Part shown: one piece after another, positions 40,977 through 49,178 of the stretch
Layout: each line of letters starts with the position of its first letter
Numbering within the stretch: position 1 is the first letter of the stretch
Notes under the pieces: generated by a model
Databases searched by the model: none
The model's input: the letters and a program-made list of their open reading frames with translations, nothing else
Told to the model about the DNA's origin: nothing
Assembly (NCBI GenBank): GCA_963815115.1
Contig: CAWFFN010000005.1
Coordinates: forward strand, 448,001 to 512,000
DNA from: an uncultured delta proteobacterium
GTDB lineage: Bacteria; Desulfobacterota; Binatia; DP-6
Reading direction: 5' to 3'
Length of the DNA stretch: 64,000 nt
Translations under genes and position numbers: made by a program

Positions 40977-42604
40977 CCGAGGCCCGACAGGCGCTTCATG
41001 CGACGCAGCAGCCCTTCGTCCTTGCGACGTTCGGACAGGATCTTCGAGATGTAGGCTCGCTTGAACGCCGCGCGTTGCGTGCCCGTGCGCACCACCTCCG
41101 GCACGTACTCCCAGCCTTCGTCCTGCTCGAAGGGCTCGATCTCCTGGTGCAGCCGGAAGAAGTATGCGGCGAGGTCGGGATCGACCCCGAGGCGCTCGAA
41201 GGCGAGGGTGAGCGGATGGCGCGCGCGCGCCGCGAGCGGCTGGATCAGACCCTCGCCGGCGACGCCGCCCTGGCCGAGTCCGAGCGCGGCCTTTCCCATG
41301 CGCTCGCGCGCGCCCGGCGGCGGGCCGAGGTGGAACGCCGCGATCGCCTCCTCGGGCGCCGAGTGCACCAGGAACCAGGAGGTGACGTAGCCGCCGGCGA
41401 TGGTCTCGATCGGCGGCGTCCAGCGGAAGAGGTCCTCGCGCGTGATCCCGAGCGCGCGCTCGGCGAAATCGGCCCAGATCTCCATGTGGTTGCGCGTCAG
41501 GTATCCACCCGACTCCGTGGCGAACGCCTGGCCGATGGCGCGCAGCGCCCGGGGCGTGCGCTGGCGCGAGAGCTGCCCCGCGATGTTGCGGGTGGCATCG
41601 AGGTGGATGAAGTCGCGCACCAGCTCCTTCGCCGCGTCCAGCGACGCCTTGCCCGAGAGCAGGAAGCCGAACGCCGTCTCCGACGGCCGGGTGAGCGTCA
41701 TGCAGAACGCGCCCAGCTCGTCCTCCATCTCCTCGTGCGTCTGCTCGCTGCCCGCCCGGAAGCGCTCGCCGGGCGGCGGCCAGACGAACTCGGGAAGCGG
41801 GTAGCGGCCTGCGACGATCTCGTTCCACGCGCGCCGCATGTTCTGGTAGATCAGCAGCCAGTGATGCACGGTGGTGCGCAGCACCGCCTGCTGCGAACCG
41901 TCGCTGGCGAGCTCGCGCACGACGTCCCACACCGGCTCGGTGACGAAGCCGCGGAAGTCCTCGTACGCGCGCCAGTAGGCCACCGCCTCGTCGTCGAGGT
42001 GCCAGGCGCGCTTCATGTACTCCGCGAGCCCGCGCTGGCAGAGCCACGGACGCTCGTCGCGGCAGACGTCGAGCAGGGAGCCCTCGCCCGCCAGCGCGCT
42101 GACCACGAACCCCTCCTCGAAGCTCGAGAACTGGAAGTGGAGCCGGGTGAAGGTGGCCTGCATGGTCTCGGGACAGGCGAGGTGCGCCTCGAGCTCGGCC
42201 TGCTCCAGGCCGAAGGCGGCCGCGAAGCGCAGGAAGAGCTCGAGCGGCGGCCGCGTCACCTGGTGGAATCCGGTCTTCCGGTTCACCAGCGGCGACAGGG
42301 CGATGAAGAGCCCGCGCCGGCGGCAGCGCGCGATCGAGGCCGCCGTACCCTGCGCGTCGAGTCGGATGAACTGGTAGTACTCCTTCAGCCAGCGGCGCAG
42401 CGCCGCGCGCTCGCAGCCGCCGTACTTGAGGGCCTCGGCGAGCACCGGCTCGACGGGATGGGCCCGCACGAGGCCCTTCAGCTCGTCGATGAAGTCGTCG
42501 ACGGGCAGCGGTGGTGCCGGTCGCTCGAAGGCGTAGAGCTCGAGAAAGTCGCTGGCGTTCGGAGCGGCGGAGGTCGGGTTCGGCTGCCGCAGCGGCGTGG
42601 CCAT
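40973..42604 (-). CDS. Tandem heme-oxygenase-like (TenA/PqqC/CADD) domain protein
   Basis: Two helical repeats with LFLRFAAAFGL/IWADFAERALGI, (P/I)ET, and AYWRAY/AYFFRLH; E-x8-H and H-x3-E only in the second repeat. Confidence 0.7.
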   Translation of the reverse strand: MATPLRQPNPTSAAPNASDFLELYAFERPAPPLPVDDFIDELKGLVRAHPVEPVLAEALKYGGCERAALRRWLKEYYQFIRLDAQGTAASIARCRRRGLFIALSPLVNRKTGFHQVTRPPLELFLRFAAAFGLEQAELEAHLACPETMQATFTRLHFQFSSFEEGFVVSALAGEGSLLDVCRDERPWLCQRGLAEYMKRAWHLDDEAVAYWRAYEDFRGFVTEPVWDVVRELASDGSQQAVLRTTVHHWLLIYQNMRRAWNEIVAGRYPLPEFVWPPPGERFRAGSEQTHEEMEDELGAFCMTLTRPSETAFGFLLSGKASLDAAKELVRDFIHLDATRNIAGQLSRQRTPRALRAIGQAFATESGGYLTRNHMEIWADFAERALGITREDLFRWTPPIETIAGGYVTSWFLVHSAPEEAIAAFHLGPPPGARERMGKAALGLGQGGVAGEGLIQPLAARARHPLTLAFERLGVDPDLAAYFFRLHQEIEPFEQDEGWEYVPEVVRTGTQRAAFKRAYISKILSERRKDEGLLRRMKRLSGLG

Positions 42605-42720
42605 GGCGCTCGGTACCAAGACGATGCGAGGTCACGCAACCCCTCGGAGCGGACACGAAGTTGACACCGGCCGGAGGCGAGGCAAAAGAAGGGGGCGACG
42701 GATGCGATTGCGGGCGCGAG

Positions 42721-44236
42721 ATGACTGAGACGAGTGAGGGCAACGCGCTCCGCTCCCTGCGCGAGATCCTCGGCTCGGGCCGGCCGCTGGTGTACATCCG
42801 GTCGCCCGAGGAGCAGCGCGTCGAGGGGCTCCTGCGCAACGTGGCGCGCTCGTTCTTCCCGTCGCCGGTCCCGCTCTGGACCTGGAGTCTCACCGAGGGC
42901 ATGCGCGGAGAAGACGGGGCGGCGGCGGGCGCAGAGGTGCTCGGCCCTCGCGCGGCGCTCGACTTCATCGTCGCGTACGACGGGCCGGCGCTCTTCGTGC
43001 TGCGAGACTTCCACGAGCCGCTGCGCGACTCGCCCGAGATCCGCCGTCGCGTGCGCGACCTCTACGAGGCCTGCCTCGACCGCGGCAAGTTCATCTTCAT
43101 CTGCTCGCCCGTCAAGGTCATCCCCGAGGAGATCGAGCGCGACCTCAGCTTCTTCGAGCTCGCGCTTCCCGATCAAGCCGAGCTCATCGCGTTCCTCCGT
43201 GAGCAGGCGGCAGCCATCAAGGCCGCCGGCGGGACGGCCGACGACAGCGACCCGACGCTGGCCCAGCTGGCGCGCGCGCTCCAGGGCCTCACGCTCGACG
43301 AGTCCCTGCATGCGATCCGGCGCGCGAAGACGACGCGGCAGGCACTCGATCGGGAGTCCGTCCCGGTCCTGCTCGAGGAGAAGCGGCAGCTGGTGAACCG
43401 CGTCGGTCTCATCGAGTACATCCCCAGCGTGACCGGCATCGAGCAGATCGGCGGTCTCGAGATCATGAAGAAGTGGCTGCTCGAGCGTCGCAAGCTGTTC
43501 GAGATGCGCGACGAGGTCGGAGCGGAGATCGTGCCCAAGGGCGTCCTGGTCATGGGCATCTCCGGCTGCGGCAAGAGCCTCTGCATCAAGGCGATCGCGT
43601 CGTGCTTCGAGCTGCCGCTCTATCGCATCGACATGGTCGAGATCTTCTCCGGACGCCACGGGCAGGCGGAGAGCGCGTTCGCGCGCGCCTGTCACATGCT
43701 CGAGGCGATCTCTCCCGCCGTGGTGTGGTTCGACGAGATCGAGGCCGCGATCAACACCCAGGCGAAGGAGGGCGAACAGGGGCGCATCTTCGGGTTCTTC
43801 CTCACCTGGATGCAGGAGAAGACCCGCGGCCTGTTCGTCGGCGCCACGGCCAACCGCATCGACCTGCTGCCCGCGGAGATGATCCGCAAGGGGCGCTTCG
43901 ACGAGGTGTTCTTCGTCGACCTGCCGCTCGACGAGGAGCGGATCGACATCGTGCGCGTGCACCTGCGGCGGCGCGGGATCGATCCGTCGGCCTTCAACCT
44001 CGAGCGCCATGAAGAAGTTCACCCGCGGCTGGACCGGGGCCGAGCTCGAGCAGTGCGTGGTGTCGGCCCTCACGACCGCCCGCCTCGAGGACCGTGAGCT
44101 CACCGCCGACGACTTGCTGAACGCCACCGCCCGCGTCGTGCCGCTGTCGAAGACGATGAAGGAGCAGGTCGAGCACATCCGCAACTGGGCGTTCGACCGC
44201 GCGGTGCGGGCGTCGCCGCGCGACGCCGCGCGCTAG
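42721..44236 (+). CDS. Ycf46-like AAA+ ATPase; frameshift near 44005
   Basis: FVLRDFH, IGGLEIMKKW, GISGCGKS, WFDEIE and IRKGRFDE; continues in another frame as TRGWTGAELEQ...VPLSKTM...IRNWA. Confidence 0.88.
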
Positions 44237-44256
44237 CTAGCGGCCCCGGCGCACCG

Positions 44257-44958
44257 TCACCAGCGCTCGCCGAACGGGCGCACGTCGATCTCGAACGTCC
44301 AGGCCGAGCGGTCCTGCCGGGCCAGCTGCCAGAACGTCTCGGCGATGGCGTCGGGCTTCAAGAAGAAGTCGTCTGGCCGATCCCCGAAGAACGCGCGCGT
44401 GTTCGGGATGTCGATGACGCCGTCGACGACGACGTAGGCGACGTGGATGCCGCCCGGCCCGAGGCTGCGTGCCATCGACTGCGCGAGGACGCGCTGGGCC
44501 GCCTTGGCGGGCGCGAAGGCCGCGAAGTTGGCTCCTCCACGCAGCGAGGCGGTGGCACCCGTGATCAGGATCGACCCGCGGCCGGCCTCGAGCATCGCCG
44601 GCGCCACCTCGCGGCTACACAGCAGGAGTCCGAGTGCGTTGACGCGCCAGGCGGCCTCGAAGGCGTCGGGCGGCGTATCGAGGAACTGGGCGAACATCCC
44701 GCTGCCCGCGTTGTAGAGAAGCGTCTCGACCGGACCCAGATCCGATCGGATGCGCGCGAAGGCGTCGCGCACGGCCTCGGCGTCACCGACGTCGGCGGCA
44801 TACGCCCGCGCACCCGGAACGCTGCGCGCCAGCTCGTCCAGGCGCTCGGCCGACCGCGCGAGCATGGCGACGCGAAATCCCTCGGCGGCGAAGCGGCGCA
44901 CCAGTGCGGCGCCGGTGCCCGGCCCGACCCCCGTGACTGCACACACCCGATCGCTCAT
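44257..44958 (-). CDS. Short-chain dehydrogenase/reductase
   Basis: TGVGPGTG, YNAG, TGATASLRG, FAPAK and GIHVAYVVVDG motifs. Confidence 0.92.
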   Translation of the reverse strand: MSDRVCAVTGVGPGTGAALVRRFAAEGFRVAMLARSAERLDELARSVPGARAYAADVGDAEAVRDAFARIRSDLGPVETLLYNAGSGMFAQFLDTPPDAFEAAWRVNALGLLLCSREVAPAMLEAGRGSILITGATASLRGGANFAAFAPAKAAQRVLAQSMARSLGPGGIHVAYVVVDGVIDIPNTRAFFGDRPDDFFLKPDAIAETFWQLARQDRSAWTFEIDVRPFGERW

Positions 44959-45004
44959 GCCGCCGACGCTACTCTGGTCGCGGAGCTCAGGGTAGAAGGC
45001 GAGC

Positions 45005-46066
45005 GTGGCCCACATCGCGACGGTGTCCCCGGCCCGGGCGACCGGTGAGACCGCCCGGGTCTACGACCAGCTCCGCCGCATGAGCGGCTCGGACCTCGTC
45101 GCGGGCGTGGTGCAGGTCTTCAGCCTGCGGCCCGCGTCGATGCGCCGCATGATCCGGAGCTGGGAGCTGGCGATGTGGGTCGGCGACGTGCCGCGGGCGG
45201 ACCGGGAGCTGGTCGCCGCGGCAGTGTCGCGGCTCAACGACTGCCACTACTGAATCGACGCCCACGAGGGCTTCCTGCAGGCTGCAGGAGGGGACGCGAG
45301 CCGGGTGGCGCCGCTGCTGGCCGGAACAGGTGCCCCCCCGACGCAGCTCGAGCGTGCCCTGGTCGATCTCGTGCGGCGGGCACACGAGGCGCCGGCGCTG
45401 CTCCGGCCCGCCGATCTGGACCCGCTGCGCGCGGTCGCCGGCGACGATGCCCTCGACTACCTGCTCGTCCTCTGCGCCTTCCACTTCATCAACCGGATCG
45501 CCGACCTGCTCGCCGTGCCCCCGGAGGTGCTCCCGGTCGCGCTGCGGCGTTTCGAGCCGTTGCGGCGACTCGGCGTACGCATGGCGAGCATGCTGCTGCG
45601 GCGGATGGACCTCGCGAACCGGCCGGACCGGACGTCGTTCGAGGACGCTTGCACCCGCGTCGAGGCGGTGGTCGGGCGGAGCGTGGCTGCCGCGCTCGAG
45701 CCCCTGCGCCCGCGCCCCAAGGTCGTCGAGTCGCTCGCGCTGGCGCTCGAGGAGCGTGACGGTGCGAGCAGCCTCGACAGCGCGACGCTGGCCCGCGTGC
45801 ACCGGGTCGTCGAGGCGGCGCTGCCCCGCTCGGCGGGCGATGCGGCGGGTTTCCATCCGCGACCGGAGGATCCGCTGGACGCGTTCGCCTTCGTCGGCAC
45901 GCGCTACGCCCCCCGGACGACCCCGGCGATGATCGCGGCGCTGCGGGGGACGGGATACGGCGACCTCGGCATCCTGGACCTCGCCGTCGCGGTGGCGGAC
46001 GCCAACCAGTGGGCGCGGATGCACCGGTTGGCTGGCCTTCCGCCGGATCTCTTCCTGGTCGCCTGA
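45005..46066 (+). CDS. AhpD/carboxymuconolactone decarboxylase-family selenoprotein (CxxU), UGA read-through at 45251-45253
   Basis: ELVAAAVSRLNDCHY-TGA-IDAH fits the AhpD ExxAxxVSxxNxCxYCxxxH core; ORFs 45005-45253 and 45305-46066 are in the same frame; SECIS-like hairpin follows. Confidence 0.82.
45271..45291 (+). promoter_or_regulatory. Bacterial SECIS-like hairpin
   Basis: CUUCCUGCA-GGC-UGCAGGAGG, starting 18 nt after UGA, with a G-containing apical loop at +27 to +29. Confidence 0.7.
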
Positions 46067-46073
46067 GCGCGCG

Positions 46074-46400
46074 CTACCTGGCCCGGGCCCACCGCGTCGC
46101 CCACGCCTGGAGCGGGGTGAGCGCGCGCAGCAGCTCGCGCCCCGCGGCGGCGAGCCGGTAGCCGCCACCCGGGTCGAGCTCGACGAGGCCCGCCTGGCGC
46201 AGCTCGGCCAGCCGCTGGTTCAGCACGCTCGGCGACATGGCGTCGCAGCGGGCGCGCAGCCCGCGAAAGGTGAGCGCCTCGGAGCGCAGCTCCCAGAGCA
46301 CGCGCAGCGTCCAGCGGCGCCCGAGGAGATCGAGCGCCGCCATGATCGGCCGTCCCGTCCGCGAGCCGCGGACCGGGCTGCCCGGGCCCGGAGCCGCCAT
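46074..46400 (-). CDS. HxlR-family winged-helix transcriptional regulator
   Basis: ALDLLGRRWTLRVLWEL, FRGL and SPSVLNQRLAEL motifs. Confidence 0.9.
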   Translation of the reverse strand: MAAPGPGSPVRGSRTGRPIMAALDLLGRRWTLRVLWELRSEALTFRGLRARCDAMSPSVLNQRLAELRQAGLVELDPGGGYRLAAAGRELLRALTPLQAWATRWARAR

Positions 46401-46405
46401 CTTGC

Positions 46406-46445
46406 GCTACGCTTTCAGAAGCGCTAGTGCTACGAATTCAGAAGC
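46406..46445. promoter_or_regulatory. Tandem operator pair GCTACGnnTTCAGAAGC between the divergent hxlR-like and CMD genes
   Basis: Copies at 46406-46422 and 46429-46445 (15/17 identical, 23-bp period), each pseudo-palindromic GCTAC-N7-GAAGC. Confidence 0.65.
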
Positions 46446-46464
46446 CACGAAGAGGAGAAGTCGC

Positions 46465-47064
46465 ATGACGCCGCCCGGACTGCAAGCCCGCATCGCCCCG
46501 CTCGAGCCGCCGTATCCGCCCGAGATCGACGCCAGCCTCCGCGCCATGATGCCGCGGAACTCGCCGATCCCCCCGCTGCGCCTGTTCCGGACACTGGTCC
46601 ACGACCCGCGGCTCTCCGAGGCCATGACCGCGCTCGGACGCTTTCTCCTCGGCCGCGAGTGCGCACTCGACCTCCACGACCGCGAGCTGGTCATCGACCG
46701 GGTGTGCGCCCGCTGCGCGTGCGAGTACGAGTGGGGCGTGCACGTCACGGTCTACGGAGCCCGGGCCGGTCTCTCGCCGGCACAGCTCGACGCCACGGTG
46801 AGCGGAGACGCGGGCACGCCGGTGTGGAGCGAGCGCGAGACCCTGCTCGTCCGACTGGTCGACGAGCTGCACGACGCCGCGCGCGTGTCGGACGACCTGT
46901 GGGCGCAGCTCGTGAGCCACTGGTCCACGCCGCAGCTGCTCGAGCTGCTGCTGCTCACCGGCTGGTATCACGCCATCGCGTTTCTCGGGAACGGCGCGCG
47001 CGTCGAGCCCGAGGAGTGGGCGGCGCGCTTCCCTCCGGCCGCACCGGTGGCCGCCGCCCGTTGA
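46465..47064 (+). CDS. Carboxymuconolactone decarboxylase (CMD) family protein
   Basis: LFRTLVH, RELVIDRVCARCACEYEWGVH and VDELH motifs; GAGGAG RBS. Confidence 0.88.
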   Translation: MTPPGLQARIAPLEPPYPPEIDASLRAMMPRNSPIPPLRLFRTLVHDPRLSEAMTALGRFLLGRECALDLHDRELVIDRVCARCACEYEWGVHVTVYGARAGLSPAQLDATVSGDAGTPVWSERETLLVRLVDELHDAARVSDDLWAQLVSHWSTPQLLELLLLTGWYHAIAFLGNGARVEPEEWAARFPPAAPVAAAR

Positions 47065-47111: not shown

Positions 47112-48746
47112 CTACGGCGTCTTGTATGGCGCCCGGTCGCCGACGTTCGCCGCCGGCGTGTAGCGGCAGAAGACGTGGATCTGCCCGTCCGGGCACTTCG
47201 CGGCCCCGCATCCGACCTTCGGGGCGAGGTCGCGTGTCTCCGCCTGGTCGTTCTTGGTGTCCCAGATGATCTGCGTGTAGTGCCCGCAGCCCGGCTTCCC
47301 CGAGTCGTCCGGCGGACAGCAGTCGAACTTGCCCCTGATCTTGAAGCAGCCTTTCTTCTGGGCATCCCCCTCGCTCAGCGCCGTGCACGTCCTCGGATAG
47401 GTGTAGCAGTGCACTTCGCCGCTCCAGAGCTTCACCGAGGTCTGCGCGATCTGCGTGGCCGTGAACGTGCCGGGCACGATCGCCAGGTTCTCGCCGACCG
47501 CGCCGCGCTGCTTGTCGTGCGTACACCCTGGACACGTCTCCGCGTAGGCGAGCGCGGCGGCCGCGAGGTCGCCGCTCCACGTGAAGGGTTTGAGCGCGGC
47601 GGCCGGCGCGGGGTCGAGCTTCCCCTCGCGTACCGCGTTGTGGGCCTTCAGGAAGGCCTCCGTATCGACCTCGACGGCCTCGCCCCGCGGCTTGGGTGTC
47701 GGCGTGGCATCATCCGCCAGAACGGGGCCGCCCGCGCCCGCGGAAGCCTCATCCCCTTCGACTGCGTCGCACTGGTCCGCACCGCAGCCCCCGACGTAGG
47801 GCGCATGGCCGAGCACCTGGCCGTCGAGCTCGACCGTTCCGACCGTCCGGACGGCGCCACGCACTCCGGTCAGGTAGATCCGCCCAGCCCGGTCGAACGG
47901 GTCGCGCGCCTCGACGCGGCTCGCCGCGAAGAGGCACGCGTCGTCGGTCCGCCGCTTCGTGGACAGGCGGACGTTTCGTCCGGAGTCGACCAGGGCGCCG
48001 GGCCCGACCGTCATTGGCCCCGTGATGGCGAGCAGCACGTCGCTGGCCGGCCCGACGCCCGTGCGGGCCGGGTCGGTCGTGAGCAGCGTCCCGTCCCGCA
48101 GGACCAGCTCTTTGGCGCCGATGACCGACAGGTTCGCGACGGCGTCGAGCTCGACCCGTCGAGAGGCCAGGCCGGCGCCCAGGAGCTCGATGACTCCCTC
48201 GGCTCCTTTTGCCCGTACGTCGATGCGCCGCCCGCCGAAGACGGTCGGCGGCCCCGGCGAGAGTCCCGTCGGGACGAGCGAGACGCCGCCGCCACGCGCG
48301 TCGATCAGCACGCGGTCCAGCGCGCCGAGGACGGTCGGTCCAGTGAGCACGATCGTGCCACGCGCGGTGAGCAGCAGATCGTCGTATGCCCGGAGATCGA
48401 GGGTGCCGGCGCTCGCCAGGTCGTCGAGGACCGCGACCATCGTCAGCGTGTCGAGGGTCGTCGGCTCCCCGTGGAGGAGTGCCCCCGGTTCGATGACGAT
48501 CCGGTCGGCCTCGACGATCGTGTCCCCGTGGAACTCCACGCGGTCCTCGCCAGAGAACCGAAGGACACCGTGCAGATGCGTCTTGCCGTCGGGGAAGTCG
48601 CAGAGACCGTTGCCGTCGGCGTCGTCGAGTGCAAGGTCGATCTGGCCGTCGCCGTCGACGTCGAAGTCGCAGAGCAACTTCGCGCCTCCCGGCGCAGCGA
48701 CGAGGAGGACGGCGGTCGTGATGACGCGCGCGAGACGGAGCATCAT
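47112..48746 (-). CDS. Secreted protein: N-terminal beta-rich region plus C-terminal CAP (SCP/PR-1) domain
   Basis: Signal peptide; HNAVR, GENLA, GHYTQIIW, VGCG and CRYTP CAP motifs. Confidence 0.82.
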   Translation of the reverse strand: MMLRLARVITTAVLLVAAPGGAKLLCDFDVDGDGQIDLALDDADGNGLCDFPDGKTHLHGVLRFSGEDRVEFHGDTIVEADRIVIEPGALLHGEPTTLDTLTMVAVLDDLASAGTLDLRAYDDLLLTARGTIVLTGPTVLGALDRVLIDARGGGVSLVPTGLSPGPPTVFGGRRIDVRAKGAEGVIELLGAGLASRRVELDAVANLSVIGAKELVLRDGTLLTTDPARTGVGPASDVLLAITGPMTVGPGALVDSGRNVRLSTKRRTDDACLFAASRVEARDPFDRAGRIYLTGVRGAVRTVGTVELDGQVLGHAPYVGGCGADQCDAVEGDEASAGAGGPVLADDATPTPKPRGEAVEVDTEAFLKAHNAVREGKLDPAPAAALKPFTWSGDLAAAALAYAETCPGCTHDKQRGAVGENLAIVPGTFTATQIAQTSVKLWSGEVHCYTYPRTCTALSEGDAQKKGCFKIRGKFDCCPPDDSGKPGCGHYTQIIWDTKNDQAETRDLAPKVGCGAAKCPDGQIHVFCRYTPAANVGDRAPYKTP

Positions 48747-49178
48747 GGGGGCCCCCCGGCGATCGGGGTTTTCCACCGCGGCCACCGGCTCCCGCTGCCG
48801 ATCGCCAGGCTTCGAGTGTCGGACGCCGTGCGGCGTGTTGTCAAGGCGAATTGGGAGGGATGCCGGGGATTTCTCGCCGTAGGACCCTCCCGCCCCGGGA
48901 TCATCTGACCGAGCTGGTCCAGCGCTGCCTTTCGGCGCAGTTGCAGGCCGCATCCAGCACCGTCAGTCGCGCGCAGTGCACCGACGGAACGCGCAGCAAG
49001 ACGGGTGCTCCACCGGGCCCCATGCGCGGTCTGTCTCCAAGGACAATGTGTCGGGACGCCGTGACGGGAGGCGCATTCTTCTCCACGACCGAACCGATCG
49101 CGGTCCGCGCCCAATGCCTTCTCGCCCGAGCTTGCGCGCCGGTTGCGCCCGGCGGGGGCGGGGACTACCACGCCACGA

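Follow-up and report, generated by a model that had tools for sequence, protein, structure and literature searches.

An in-frame TGA codon and a SECIS-like hairpin point to a two-lobed AhpD-type selenoprotein in a Binatia genome

Gene layout and annotation

The window (the whole stretch of DNA that was analysed, 64,000 nucleotides long) carries on its forward strand a single frame of 353 codons, in which codon 83 is the sole internal TGA (Table 1). An earlier note on this DNA had claimed that an 82-aa open reading frame (ORF; 45005–45253) and a 253-aa ORF (45305–46066) share one frame, and that reading through the TGA would give a protein of about 353 residues. Both claims held: the two ORFs are in the same frame and the continuous translation, ...SRLNDCHY-TGA-IDAHEGFLQAAGG..., runs to 353 residues. 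An upstream stop lies three codons 5′ of the GTG, and the orthologues have their starts at the aligned position.

Table 1: Features of the candidate selenoprotein gene, with positions in the window.
Feature	Positions	Strand	Details
Complete coding sequence of the predicted selenoprotein	45005..46066	+	GTG start, 353 codons, stop TGA 46064-46066
N-terminal lobe, AhpD-like, predicted catalytic, residues 1-176	45005..45532	+	TIGR01926, PF02627, structural matches
Putative active-site motif C80-H-Y82-U83-I-D85-A-H87	45242..45265	+	TGC 45242-45244, TGA 45251-45253, His87 45263-45265
In-frame TGA, predicted selenocysteine codon	45251..45253	+	Cys in homologues, TGA in related sequences
Predicted SECIS hairpin	45271..45291	+	8-bp stem 45272-45279/45283-45290, apical loop GGC 45280-45282
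C-terminal lobe, predicted degenerate AhpD/CMD fold, residues 177-353	45533..46063	+	No CxxC motif; structural matches

Searches with the read-through protein returned domain matches that run across the internal TGA. The Pfam CMD domain (PF02627) spans it from residue 43 to residue 106 (E 3.7e-10; 40.1 bits against a cut-off of 23), as does the NCBIfam model TIGR00778 (45 bits against a cut-off of 27.8). The best-scoring model, TIGR01926 of NCBIfam, covers residues 5–173 with model positions 4–175 of 178 and likewise spans the TGA; its score of 77.6 bits narrowly misses the curated cut-off of 81.8, so we regard the protein as a variant form within the kind of the AhpD-like selenoprotein subfamily and not as a strict member.

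Gene callers split the gene in two, as the earlier note had expected. C-terminal pieces account for 112 of the best 120 database matches, cluster representatives include N-terminal pieces of 82–83 aa terminating right at the TGA, and in public protein sets the gene is found mostly as its 82-aa and ~253-aa halves. Since the gene is stored as halves, selenoproteome counts for these lineages are too low. Joining the halves would correct the annotation of a gene carried by a clade of soil and sediment bacteria and on record almost solely as two meaningless fragments.

The in-frame TGA, its hairpin and the decoding machinery

According to the earlier note, the TGA occupies the place of the second Cys of the AhpD CxxC motif, with the conserved His four residues further on, and this was borne out by the pairing of Sec and Cys at that position among relatives. 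Residues E68, C80, Y82, C/U83, D85 and H87 are invariant across 23 full-length sequences. The search for homologues with Cys at the TGA codon that the same note had proposed found seven of full length (P0003, P0004, P0007, P0008, P0010, P0016 and P0037), and the Cys forms are single ORFs of 354–363 aa; residue 83 is W in P0011 and G in P0167, a distant relative. The spacing of E68/C80/Y82/U83/H87 equals that of the Glu74/Cys86/Tyr88/Cys89/His93 set described for YP_296737.1 (PDB 2prr; PMC4674687).

A TGA stands at the identical codon in 20 distinct related sequences from independent assemblies. In the class, 19 of 401 genomes were matched at E ≤ 1e-40, and every full-length match (18 of 18) has exactly one TGA, always at the same codon; a phylum-wide sample gave matches at the same threshold in 2 of 401 genomes, the present genome (G000) being one of them. 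Of four further genomes in the genus, two gave no match (G001, 95% complete, and G003, 100% complete), and the gene is accordingly accessory. Positions 45251–45253 are covered by contigs from sequencing runs X2, X3 and X7, which belong to three studies and show no variant there among the rows listed; X2 may be the source sample. The 20 run rows listed include no RNA run; all are contigs of DNA, assembled from metagenomes of soil, peat or other sources. Together with the hairpin and the decoding machinery described below, these comparisons make it almost certain that codon 83 is read as selenocysteine.

The hairpin claimed by the earlier note, CTTCCTGCA-GGC-TGCAGGAGG, was found where it had been placed, its first base being the 18th nucleotide past the TGA, and its loop starts 26 nt downstream of the TGA. 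A ninth pair, C-G (45271/45291), is present here and unconserved, and the stretch holds two CTGCAG palindromes. The core, TTCCTGCA-GGC-TGCAGGAG, is identical in 18 of the 20 distinct sequences; in the other two an A>G change turns a U-A pair into U-G, so that pairing is kept. Synonymous freedom was compared among 18 distinct orthologues with 49–75% amino-acid identity: within codons 90–96, four of the five invariant columns with four- or six-fold degeneracy use a single codon, against 0 of 41 elsewhere (Fisher p 3e-5, a value that overstates the signal because the orthologues are related to one another). The frozen codons are 91, 93, 94 and 95, and the triplets GCT, GCA and GGA that occupy them are seldom used in these genes (9%, 10% and 16%, respectively). 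The first free synonymous site is the third base of codon 96, just beyond the 8-bp stem and the optional ninth pair. No compensatory double changes in the stem were seen across the 20 distinct sequences and, with the stem nearly invariant, the structure is argued from the freezing of synonymous sites and the two wobble changes. The Cys-form gene at locus L055 reads ATG ATG GAA GCG GCG GGG at this position and lacks the hairpin, and Cys-form peptides differ there from one another (AFLQAVGG, AFLAAVGG and AMMEAAGG).

The published bSECIS model, as set out in a passage of PMC13188914, specifies a loop of 3–9 nt, an upper stem of 4–16 bp, a loop that has G among its first two positions, a UGA-to-loop distance of 16–37 nt and a minimum free energy of −7.5 kcal/mol or lower. 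The present hairpin lies within all of these bounds, with a 3-nt GGC loop, a stem of 8–9 bp, a spacing of 26 nt and −12.2 kcal/mol when folded alone; its loop also reads A-GGC-U under the N1-G[G|U]N-N2 pattern. RNA folding of the region, which the earlier note had put forward as a check, turned out unfavourably: RNAfold on 45245–45320 (76 nt) gave a z of +0.58, no better than shuffles, with the hairpin present in the centroid structure and absent from the minimum-free-energy structure. Support for the hairpin comes, therefore, from comparison and not from folding energy. An Rfam scan of 44000–47000 at E ≤ 10 returned no SECIS family, just four weak and unrelated matches.

The resemblance to the apex of the E. 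coli fdhF SECIS that had been pointed out was confirmed, with UGCA-GGUC-UGCA in strain K-12 against UGCA-GGC-UGCA here, and both elements lie within the coding sequence just past the UGA. The E. coli loop is one base longer and starts 18 nt after the UGA, as against 26 nt here; the E. coli element has, in RNAfold, a long interrupted stem that reaches nearly back to the UGA, whereas no such conserved extension exists here.

The earlier note had also proposed looking for selA, selB, selC and selD, and selA, selB, selD and tRNA-Sec are all present in this genome, which is rated 100% complete. The genes selA, selB and selD adjoin one another on contig C12 (C12:419444–423705), all scoring above curated cut-offs. 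The tRNA-Sec gene (C12:592977–593068) scores 65.8 bits in Rfam, where the gathering score is 47, and is identified by ARAGORN as tRNA-SeC with anticodon tca. The genome also carries a Sec-type FdhA gene, in which an in-frame TGA precedes a hairpin whose loop reads GGUCU.

Two-lobed fold and proposed mechanism

The AlphaFold model of the read-through protein (pLDDT 94.7, pTM 0.93) is a compact single body with two AhpD-like lobes. Its best whole-chain match among solved structures is human Sestrin2 (Z 23.0–23.2, rmsd 2.9–3.1, 253–259 residues, model residues 15–345). Taken by itself, the N lobe matches 6k40, 2oyo and 2prr with Z of about 15 over 178 residues, and a profile search matched 6k40 at E 3e-17. 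When the C lobe (residues 177–353) was modelled alone, pLDDT was 87.7 and, in a search of 48,161 solved chains, the best match was 2pfx (Z 10.4); the nine best matches (Z 10.4 to 5.2) were all AhpD/CMD-fold proteins or Sestrin2 and the first unrelated row stood at Z 4.7, although Z values of 5–10 may also arise by chance between helical bundles.

In the alignment, none of the Cys residues of the C lobe is conserved and the lobe lacks a CxxC motif, and Pfam searches with the C-terminal 183 and 253 residues matched nothing at E ≤ 10. The second, motif-less CMD-like domain postulated by the earlier note thus finds support in the modelled structure, through the matches of the C lobe to AhpD, CMD and Sestrin2 folds and its lack of a conserved Cys. 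A comparison by hhalign between the N and C halves of alignment A2 gave a probability of 3.3% and an E of 0.013, over the last helix pair only, so internal duplication is not shown by sequence; on the same result, ADANQWARMH was dropped as a candidate relic of the CxxU motif. Judging from the model, the C lobe most likely stands in for the partner subunit of an AhpD-type dimer, and the protein would then be a Sestrin-like pseudo-dimer having just one active site.

Decoding would follow the standard bacterial Sec pathway, all parts of which were found: the ribosome would meet UGA at codon 83, and the downstream hairpin within the coding sequence would recruit SelB with Sec-tRNA(Sec), leading to insertion of Sec and not to termination. 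In the N lobe, C80-x-x-U83 would form a selenenylsulfide redox centre served by a proton relay of E68, Y82 and H87, with the C lobe presumably a degenerate copy without redox residues. By homology, the selenolate of U83 may attack a hydroperoxide or an oxidised thiol partner, after which C80 would resolve the intermediate with formation of an Se-S bond, to be reduced again by a thiol system.

No neighbouring gene was shared by more than three loci when ORFs from 19 loci, with flanks of 1.5–3 kb, were clustered all against all, and tblastn of five window neighbours against nine related loci found solely the second CMD gene, adjoining the L025 copy. As no neighbour is conserved across the 19 loci, no partner or substrate can be inferred.

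Alternative readings and known relatives

We put at about 92% the probability that 45005–46066 is one gene, encoding a 353-residue two-lobed AhpD-type selenoprotein in which UGA is decoded as Sec by way of the hairpin. Taken at face value, the TGA would instead be a true stop between two genes, one for an 82-aa peptide and one for a 253-aa protein starting at the GTG at 45305. This is how gene callers themselves read the locus, and databases contain the window's own 253-aa product, more than 100 look-alikes of ~250 aa and also 82–83-aa pieces; automatic calling of a Sec gene would, however, be expected to leave such pieces in databases anyway. Two genes would also mean that the 17 codons from the TGA to the GTG at 45305 are non-coding, yet these hold the invariant D85 and H87; one Pfam and one TIGR domain cross the TGA, the Cys forms are uninterrupted genes and the confidently modelled read-through product is one body with two lobes, all of which makes a true stop highly improbable. 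It is exceedingly unlikely that we are dealing with a pseudogene, or that faulty sequencing or assembly turned a TGC or TGT Cys codon into the TGA. TGA is one base away from either Cys codon and the family does have Cys forms, but the same codon is TGA in 20 distinct sequences from independent assemblies, among them every one of the 18 full-length matches of the class sample, and no variant stands among the rows listed for the contigs of the three runs; moreover, the frame is otherwise unbroken and conserved, and the hairpin under selection comes after the TGA.

Readthrough might also occur with Trp, Cys or Gly in place of Sec, through a near-cognate or suppressor tRNA or a reassigned code. 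The W on record in P0011 and the G in the distant P0167 speak for this, although the W may most simply come from gene calling under table 4. The gene itself ends in TGA, as do most orthologues, which speaks against reassignment of the code; the residue is the redox Cys in a CxxC motif, for which Sec is a known replacement, and the genome combines complete Sec machinery with a SECIS that conforms to the model. Insertion of another residue therefore seems very unlikely. It is scarcely probable, too, that the frozen stretch 45272–45290 serves some other role than SECIS, as a protein-binding site, a regulatory hairpin or an antisense feature: the lack of compensatory double changes and of an Rfam match, and the presence of the two palindromes, would suit such a role, but the element is confined to TGA forms, being missing from the Cys-form gene at a place where Cys-form peptides vary, both its placement and its loop agree with the bSECIS model, and its apex matches that of the E. 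coli fdhF SECIS.

AhpD-like selenoproteins are one of the commonest kinds of bacterial selenoprotein and, to our knowledge, the published members are all single-domain proteins. Passages in the literature (PMC1088965, PMC2398784, PMC13188914, PMC9312934) document the AhpD-like family (TIGR01926 / COG2128 'YciW') with CxxU, in agreement with the earlier note, which had called such selenoproteins known. The family goes back to the Sargasso Sea metagenome in 2005 and bears the name 'AhpD-like 1' in the GOS study. Like that family, the protein predicted here has CxxU followed by a His at +4, and its model shows the fold of the TIGR01926-type structures 2prr, 2oyo and 6k40; these solved relatives have 186–197 residues, as against 353 here with a fused, degenerate second lobe. 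The kind of protein is thus well known and its two-lobed layout less so. AhpD-like selenoproteins would gain a fused form with a single active site, which does not overturn current understanding. A literature search on Binatia and selenocysteine found no paper, and one on YciW and selenoprotein yielded, in the passages retrieved, nothing beyond the naming of COG2128.

The whole-chain likeness to human Sestrin2 (PDB 5dj4, 5t0n, 5cuf) extends over both lobes, with 15% identity in the structural alignment. In Sestrin2, as a passage of PMC4674687 describes it, and in the protein modelled here, the N lobe carries an AhpD-type helix-turn-helix redox site and the C lobe does not. Of the two Cys positions, Sestrin2 retains just the first (Cys125), the second being Leu (PMC4674687), whereas both are retained here, the second as predicted Sec. 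Searches for kinship in sequence gave no Pfam PA26 match at E ≤ 1, where CMD was the sole family, and no Sestrin chain among profile matches at E ≤ 10. By inspection, the 353-residue sequence lacks the electronegative DDYDY hinge with which Sestrin binds GATOR2, according to a passage of PMC11429811. The fold common to this protein and Sestrin2 does not show direct descent. The same general architecture, with two AhpD-like domains per chain, is found in bacterial 'Sestrin analogues', E. coli YciW among them (PMC11429811); the passages of that paper on two-AhpD-domain bacterial proteins present them as a possible route to Sestrins and do not mention selenocysteine.

A more far-reaching proposal, which we regard as unlikely, would make the clade a selenoenzyme family in its own right, missed by every curated model, in which an AhpD-type dimer became a fused pseudo-dimer with one active site and Sec was fixed (18 of 18 full-length matches in the class sample), and would at its boldest place it on the very bacterial lineage that gave rise to the eukaryotic Sestrins. 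If that were true, the protein would offer a catalytically intact model of an ancestral Sestrin. As a Sestrin2-like bacterial protein (Z 23) with a complete redox centre, apparently strengthened by selenium, it may help in studying the past role of the Sestrin N lobe.

Other curated models lie further from the protein than TIGR01926. The YciW-related model NF053654 scores 17.2 bits against a cut-off of 310, and NF041238 (AhpD_rel_CFYUT, alkylhydroperoxidase-related (seleno)protein, 'hypothetical protein 1' of the Sargasso Sea), a curated selenoprotein model close in length to the present protein (357 positions) and with an AhpD-type CxxU, scores 42.2 bits against a cut-off of 175. Because the protein falls under the NCBIfam cut-offs of TIGR01926, NF041238 and NF053654, automatic pipelines will keep splitting the gene. 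In the NF041238 match, residues 59–168 align with profile positions 215–330, which indicates that the redox domain makes up the C-terminal half in the NF041238 family and the N-terminal half here.

A single reading frame across an in-frame TGA

The 353-codon AhpD-like gene is a real selenoprotein gene. Its two apparent open reading frames lie in the same frame, as the earlier note had read them, and read-through of the single internal TGA (codon 83, 45251–45253, in the context SRLNDCHY-TGA-IDAHEGFLQAAGG) joins them into 353 residues; the terminal stop is likewise TGA. The GTG start is well placed, since a stop lies three codons upstream and orthologues start at the aligned position. The frame continues through the TGA, which is spanned by Pfam CMD (PF02627; residues 43–106, E 3.7e-10), by TIGR00778 for the AhpD core domain (residues 61–108, cut-off exceeded) and by the NCBIfam ‘peroxidase-related enzyme’ model TIGR01926 (residues 5–173; 77.6 bits, slightly below the cut-off of 81.8), and the AlphaFold2 model of the read-through protein, built on a 47-sequence alignment, has a mean pLDDT of 94.7 and a pTM of 0.93.

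Features of the selenoprotein gene and its surroundings (window positions)
Feature	Positions	Strand	Remark
AAA-ATPase gene	42511–44097	+	Flanks the region; nothing ties it to the selenoprotein
Short-chain dehydrogenase (SDR) gene	44257–44958	−	Divergent from the selenoprotein gene
Selenoprotein gene	45005–46066	+	GTG start
82-aa ORF	45005–45253	+	Same frame as the 253-aa ORF
Hairpin CTTCCTGCA-GGC-TGCAGGAGG	45271–45291	+	Window sequence
253-aa ORF	45305–46066	+	Same frame as the 82-aa ORF
HxlR-type regulator gene	46074–46400	−	Divergent from the second CMD-family gene
Second CMD-family gene	about 46462–47064	+	Ordinary Cys motif (CARCACEYEWGVH); downstream of the selenoprotein gene
Large CAP/SCP-domain protein gene	47112–48953	−	Flanks the region; nothing ties it to the selenoprotein

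The search for selA, selB, selC and selD that the earlier note had proposed found all of them in the source genome (6.89 Mb in 12 contigs, rated 100% complete). Three genes, selA, selB and selD, adjoin in one tight cluster (C12:419444–423705), each above its curated cut-off, and contig C12 also carries, at a distance of about 170 kb, a tRNA-Sec (C12:592977–593068; 65.8 bits, with a gathering score of 47), called by ARAGORN as tRNA-SeC with anticodon tca. Outside the window, the genome has a second selenoprotein gene, FdhA, for a formate dehydrogenase alpha subunit of the TIGR01553 type (C9:1744540–1747661); its in-frame TGA is at C9:1744998, and 11 nt downstream comes a GGUGCCC-GGUCU-GGGCGCC hairpin (loop GGUCU).

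Sequencing error as the origin of the TGA is improbable: contigs from runs X2 (identical, and perhaps from the source sample of the assembly), X3 and X7 span 45251–45253 and show no variant there among the matches listed, in which 45236–45325 is free of differences and many differences lie on either side. Full-length matches in 61 relatives carry one TGA each, with no exception. Of 401 genomes sampled evenly over the class and searched at E ≤ 1e-40, 19 gave matches, with exactly one TGA in all 18 full-length matches; the four remaining match rows came from a copy in G016 broken off at a contig end, a paralogue in G547 (39% identity, no TGA) and a second copy in G555. When three MAG contigs labelled Candidatus Binatia or Deltaproteobacteria are added, TGA occupies the same codon in 20 of 20 distinct sequences. 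The second copy in G555 (loci L068 and L070, G555:C23:296711–297720) falls into two reading frames and keeps the TGA and an A>G variant of the hairpin; decay of a duplicate or a frameshift introduced in assembly may explain it.

The Sec position and the probable SECIS element

Nine homologues from a 5.8-billion-protein collection were inspected. In seven full-length proteins (P0003, P0004, P0007, P0008, P0010, P0016 and P0037; 51–69% identity, motif C-x-Y-C-[TI]-D-[AG]-H) the residue aligned with codon 83 is Cys, in line with the proposal that the TGA replaces the second Cys of the AhpD motif; P0021 is a C-terminal piece. The W at this position in P0011 most likely comes from a caller that took TGA for Trp, the G in P0167 could likewise stem from a genetic code in which TGA encodes a residue, and the M in P0141 would be a true loss of the redox residue. 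Across a 23-sequence full-length alignment E68, N78, C80, Y82, C/U83, D85 and H87, the last being the motif’s expected His, are invariant, and the spacing of E68/C80/Y82/U83/H87 equals that of the catalytic residues Glu74/Cys86/Tyr88/Cys89/His93 in R. eutropha YP_296737.1 (PDB 2prr) (PMC4674687).

Judged by comparison between sequences, the hairpin downstream of the TGA is very probably the SECIS. Its core, TTCCTGCA-GGC-TGCAGGAG, is unchanged in 18 of 20 distinct sequences, the remaining two having an A>G in the core by which a U-A pair becomes U-G; the ninth pair of the window hairpin is not conserved, because the base preceding the core varies. In a codon alignment of 18 distinct orthologues (49–75% amino-acid identity), 46 columns hold an invariant residue of four- or sixfold degeneracy, and a single codon serves all 18 in four of the five such columns within codons 90–96 against none of 41 elsewhere (Fisher p 3e-5, which overstates the signal because the sequences are related). 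The frozen codons are L91 CTG, A93 GCT, A94 GCA and G95 GGA, the last three of them rare (9%, 10% and 16% of their own codon families in these genes), and all four letters occur at the third base of codon 96, immediately beyond the stem. The one Cys-form gene seen as DNA (L055, encoding P0016) reads ATG ATG GAA GCG GCG GGG at this site and lacks the hairpin, and Cys-form peptides vary there (AFLQAVGG, AFLAAVGG, AMMEAAGG).

The hairpin fits the bacterial SECIS model given in the Fig. 2 legend of PMC13188914 on all four of its constraints. Its loop is 3 nt long, its stem 8–9 bp and its UGA-to-loop spacing 26 nt; the loop begins GG, or is A-GGC-U under the N1-G[G|U]N-N2 pattern. In isolation it folds at −12.2 kcal/mol, and its apex is nearly the same as that of the E. 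coli K-12 fdhF SECIS (UGCA-GGUC-UGCA), a likeness already remarked on in the earlier note. Folded as a whole, the 76-nt region does not outperform its shuffled versions, the hairpin being absent from its minimum-free-energy structure and present only in the centroid; an Rfam search of the hairpin region gave no match, and no compensatory double changes were found in the stem among the 20 distinct sequences. The SECIS-like character claimed for the hairpin is thus upheld by core conservation, frozen synonymous sites and model fit, but not by the folding of its region.

Two lobes and a proposed mode of action

Foldseek gave human Sestrin2 as the top match of the whole-protein model. By VIA-align, Sestrin2 covers model residues 15–345 (Z 23.0–23.2, rmsd 2.9–3.1, 253–259 residues), whereas the single-domain AhpD-like proteins 6k40, 2oyo, 3c1l, 2prr and 2pfx match residues 1–196 only (Z 14.7–15.5). 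The C lobe (residues 177–353), modelled alone, has a pLDDT of 87.7; in a direct alignment against 48,161 solved chains, bypassing Foldseek, its best nine matches are all AhpD/CMD-fold proteins or Sestrin2 (2pfx, Z 10.4; 6ohi, 9.5; 2gmy, 9.4; 3lvy, 8.4; 2q0t, 7.8; 4g9q, 7.2; 1gu9, 6.3; 5cuf, 5.6; 2ouw, 5.2), values that are modest for a helical domain, and the next row has Z 4.7. Because these top rows are uniform and the whole chain matches Sestrin2, the C lobe is assigned an AhpD/CMD fold, and the models indicate that the description of it as a second, motif-less CMD-like domain was right at the level of fold. By sequence, no internal repeat was seen (hhalign probability 3%) and Pfam gave no match on the C lobe. 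Sestrin2 is a pseudo-symmetric pair of lobes, of which the N lobe is an alkylhydroperoxide reductase acting via Cys125 and has Leu at the second Cys position (PMC4674687); among bacterial proteins, a 2024 review names those with two AhpD-like domains, YciW for example, as analogues of Sestrin (PMC11429811).

On the known bacterial model of Sec decoding, the hairpin would bind SelB with its Sec-tRNA(Sec), and SelB would deliver Sec at UGA-83. By analogy with AhpD and Sestrin, a hydroperoxide or oxidised thiol would be attacked by the selenolate of U83, and C80 would resolve the intermediate, giving a Se-S bond; the proton relay would consist of E68, Y82 and H87, and a thiol system would re-reduce the redox centre. 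From the predicted fold, the C lobe most likely substitutes for the partner subunit in an AhpD-type dimer.

Annotation, distribution and genomic setting

AhpD-like CxxU selenoproteins had, as the earlier note stated, already been reported in bacteria: 27 sequences (COG2128) came from the Sargasso Sea in 2005 (PMC1088965), AhpD-like 1 was among the most abundant families in the GOS data, with 299 genes (PMC2398784), recent reviews place these proteins under TIGR01926/COG2128 (PMC13188914, PMC9312934) and BSepDB has a page for the family (PMC13326102). The window protein is of the same kind but falls below the cut-off of TIGR01926 and of every other curated AhpD-related selenoprotein model, and it adds a fused second lobe. 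A link between Sec and the two-lobed form was not found in the literature consulted; paper supplements and BSepDB may contain such members. The gene matters mainly for correcting annotation and as a curiosity of structure.

Gene callers do split it, as anticipated. Among the best 120 protein-collection matches, eight cover 89–99% of the query (seven Cys forms and one W), and the other 112 are C-terminal pieces of 62–76% coverage, the window’s own 253-aa product among them, called ‘hypothetical protein’ or ‘alkylhydroperoxidase family enzyme’ where named. A library of 1.84 billion proteins gave 44 cluster representatives at E ≤ 1e-30: four span profile position 83 (Cys in P0147, P0165 and P0010, Met in P0141), three are 82–83-aa pieces ending at position 82 (the two inspected, P0156 and P0159, both end ...NDCHY) and 37 start at or beyond position 96. 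These counts indicate a family mostly of Sec form and mostly split in public data.

The distribution is patchy: the gene is present in two of four other genomes of the genus, four of 24 in the family and two of 401 in a phylum-wide sample. In the sequencing-run search, parts of it turned up only in metagenomic DNA contigs from soil and peat.

No neighbouring gene is conserved across 19 loci. The likely ATG of the SDR gene (complementary to 44956–44958) is 46 bp from the GTG, leaving very little room for two promoters, and this pairing is not kept in relatives. Directly 3′ of the selenoprotein gene stands the pair of HxlR regulator and Cys-type CMD gene; at L025, a locus in a relative, a 50%-identical copy of the latter is immediately upstream of the orthologue. 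The SDR, HxlR and Cys-type CMD context, which is not common to relatives, fits a redox or electrophile-stress setting.

Many weaker AhpD-like matches in class genomes, each with one in-frame TGA, occur, at G036:C190:6216–6569 (on the contig of the orthologue, some 3 kb upstream of it), at G048:C1:39637–40152, on G053:C28 and G009:C6, and elsewhere, and point to several further AhpD-like selenoprotein families.
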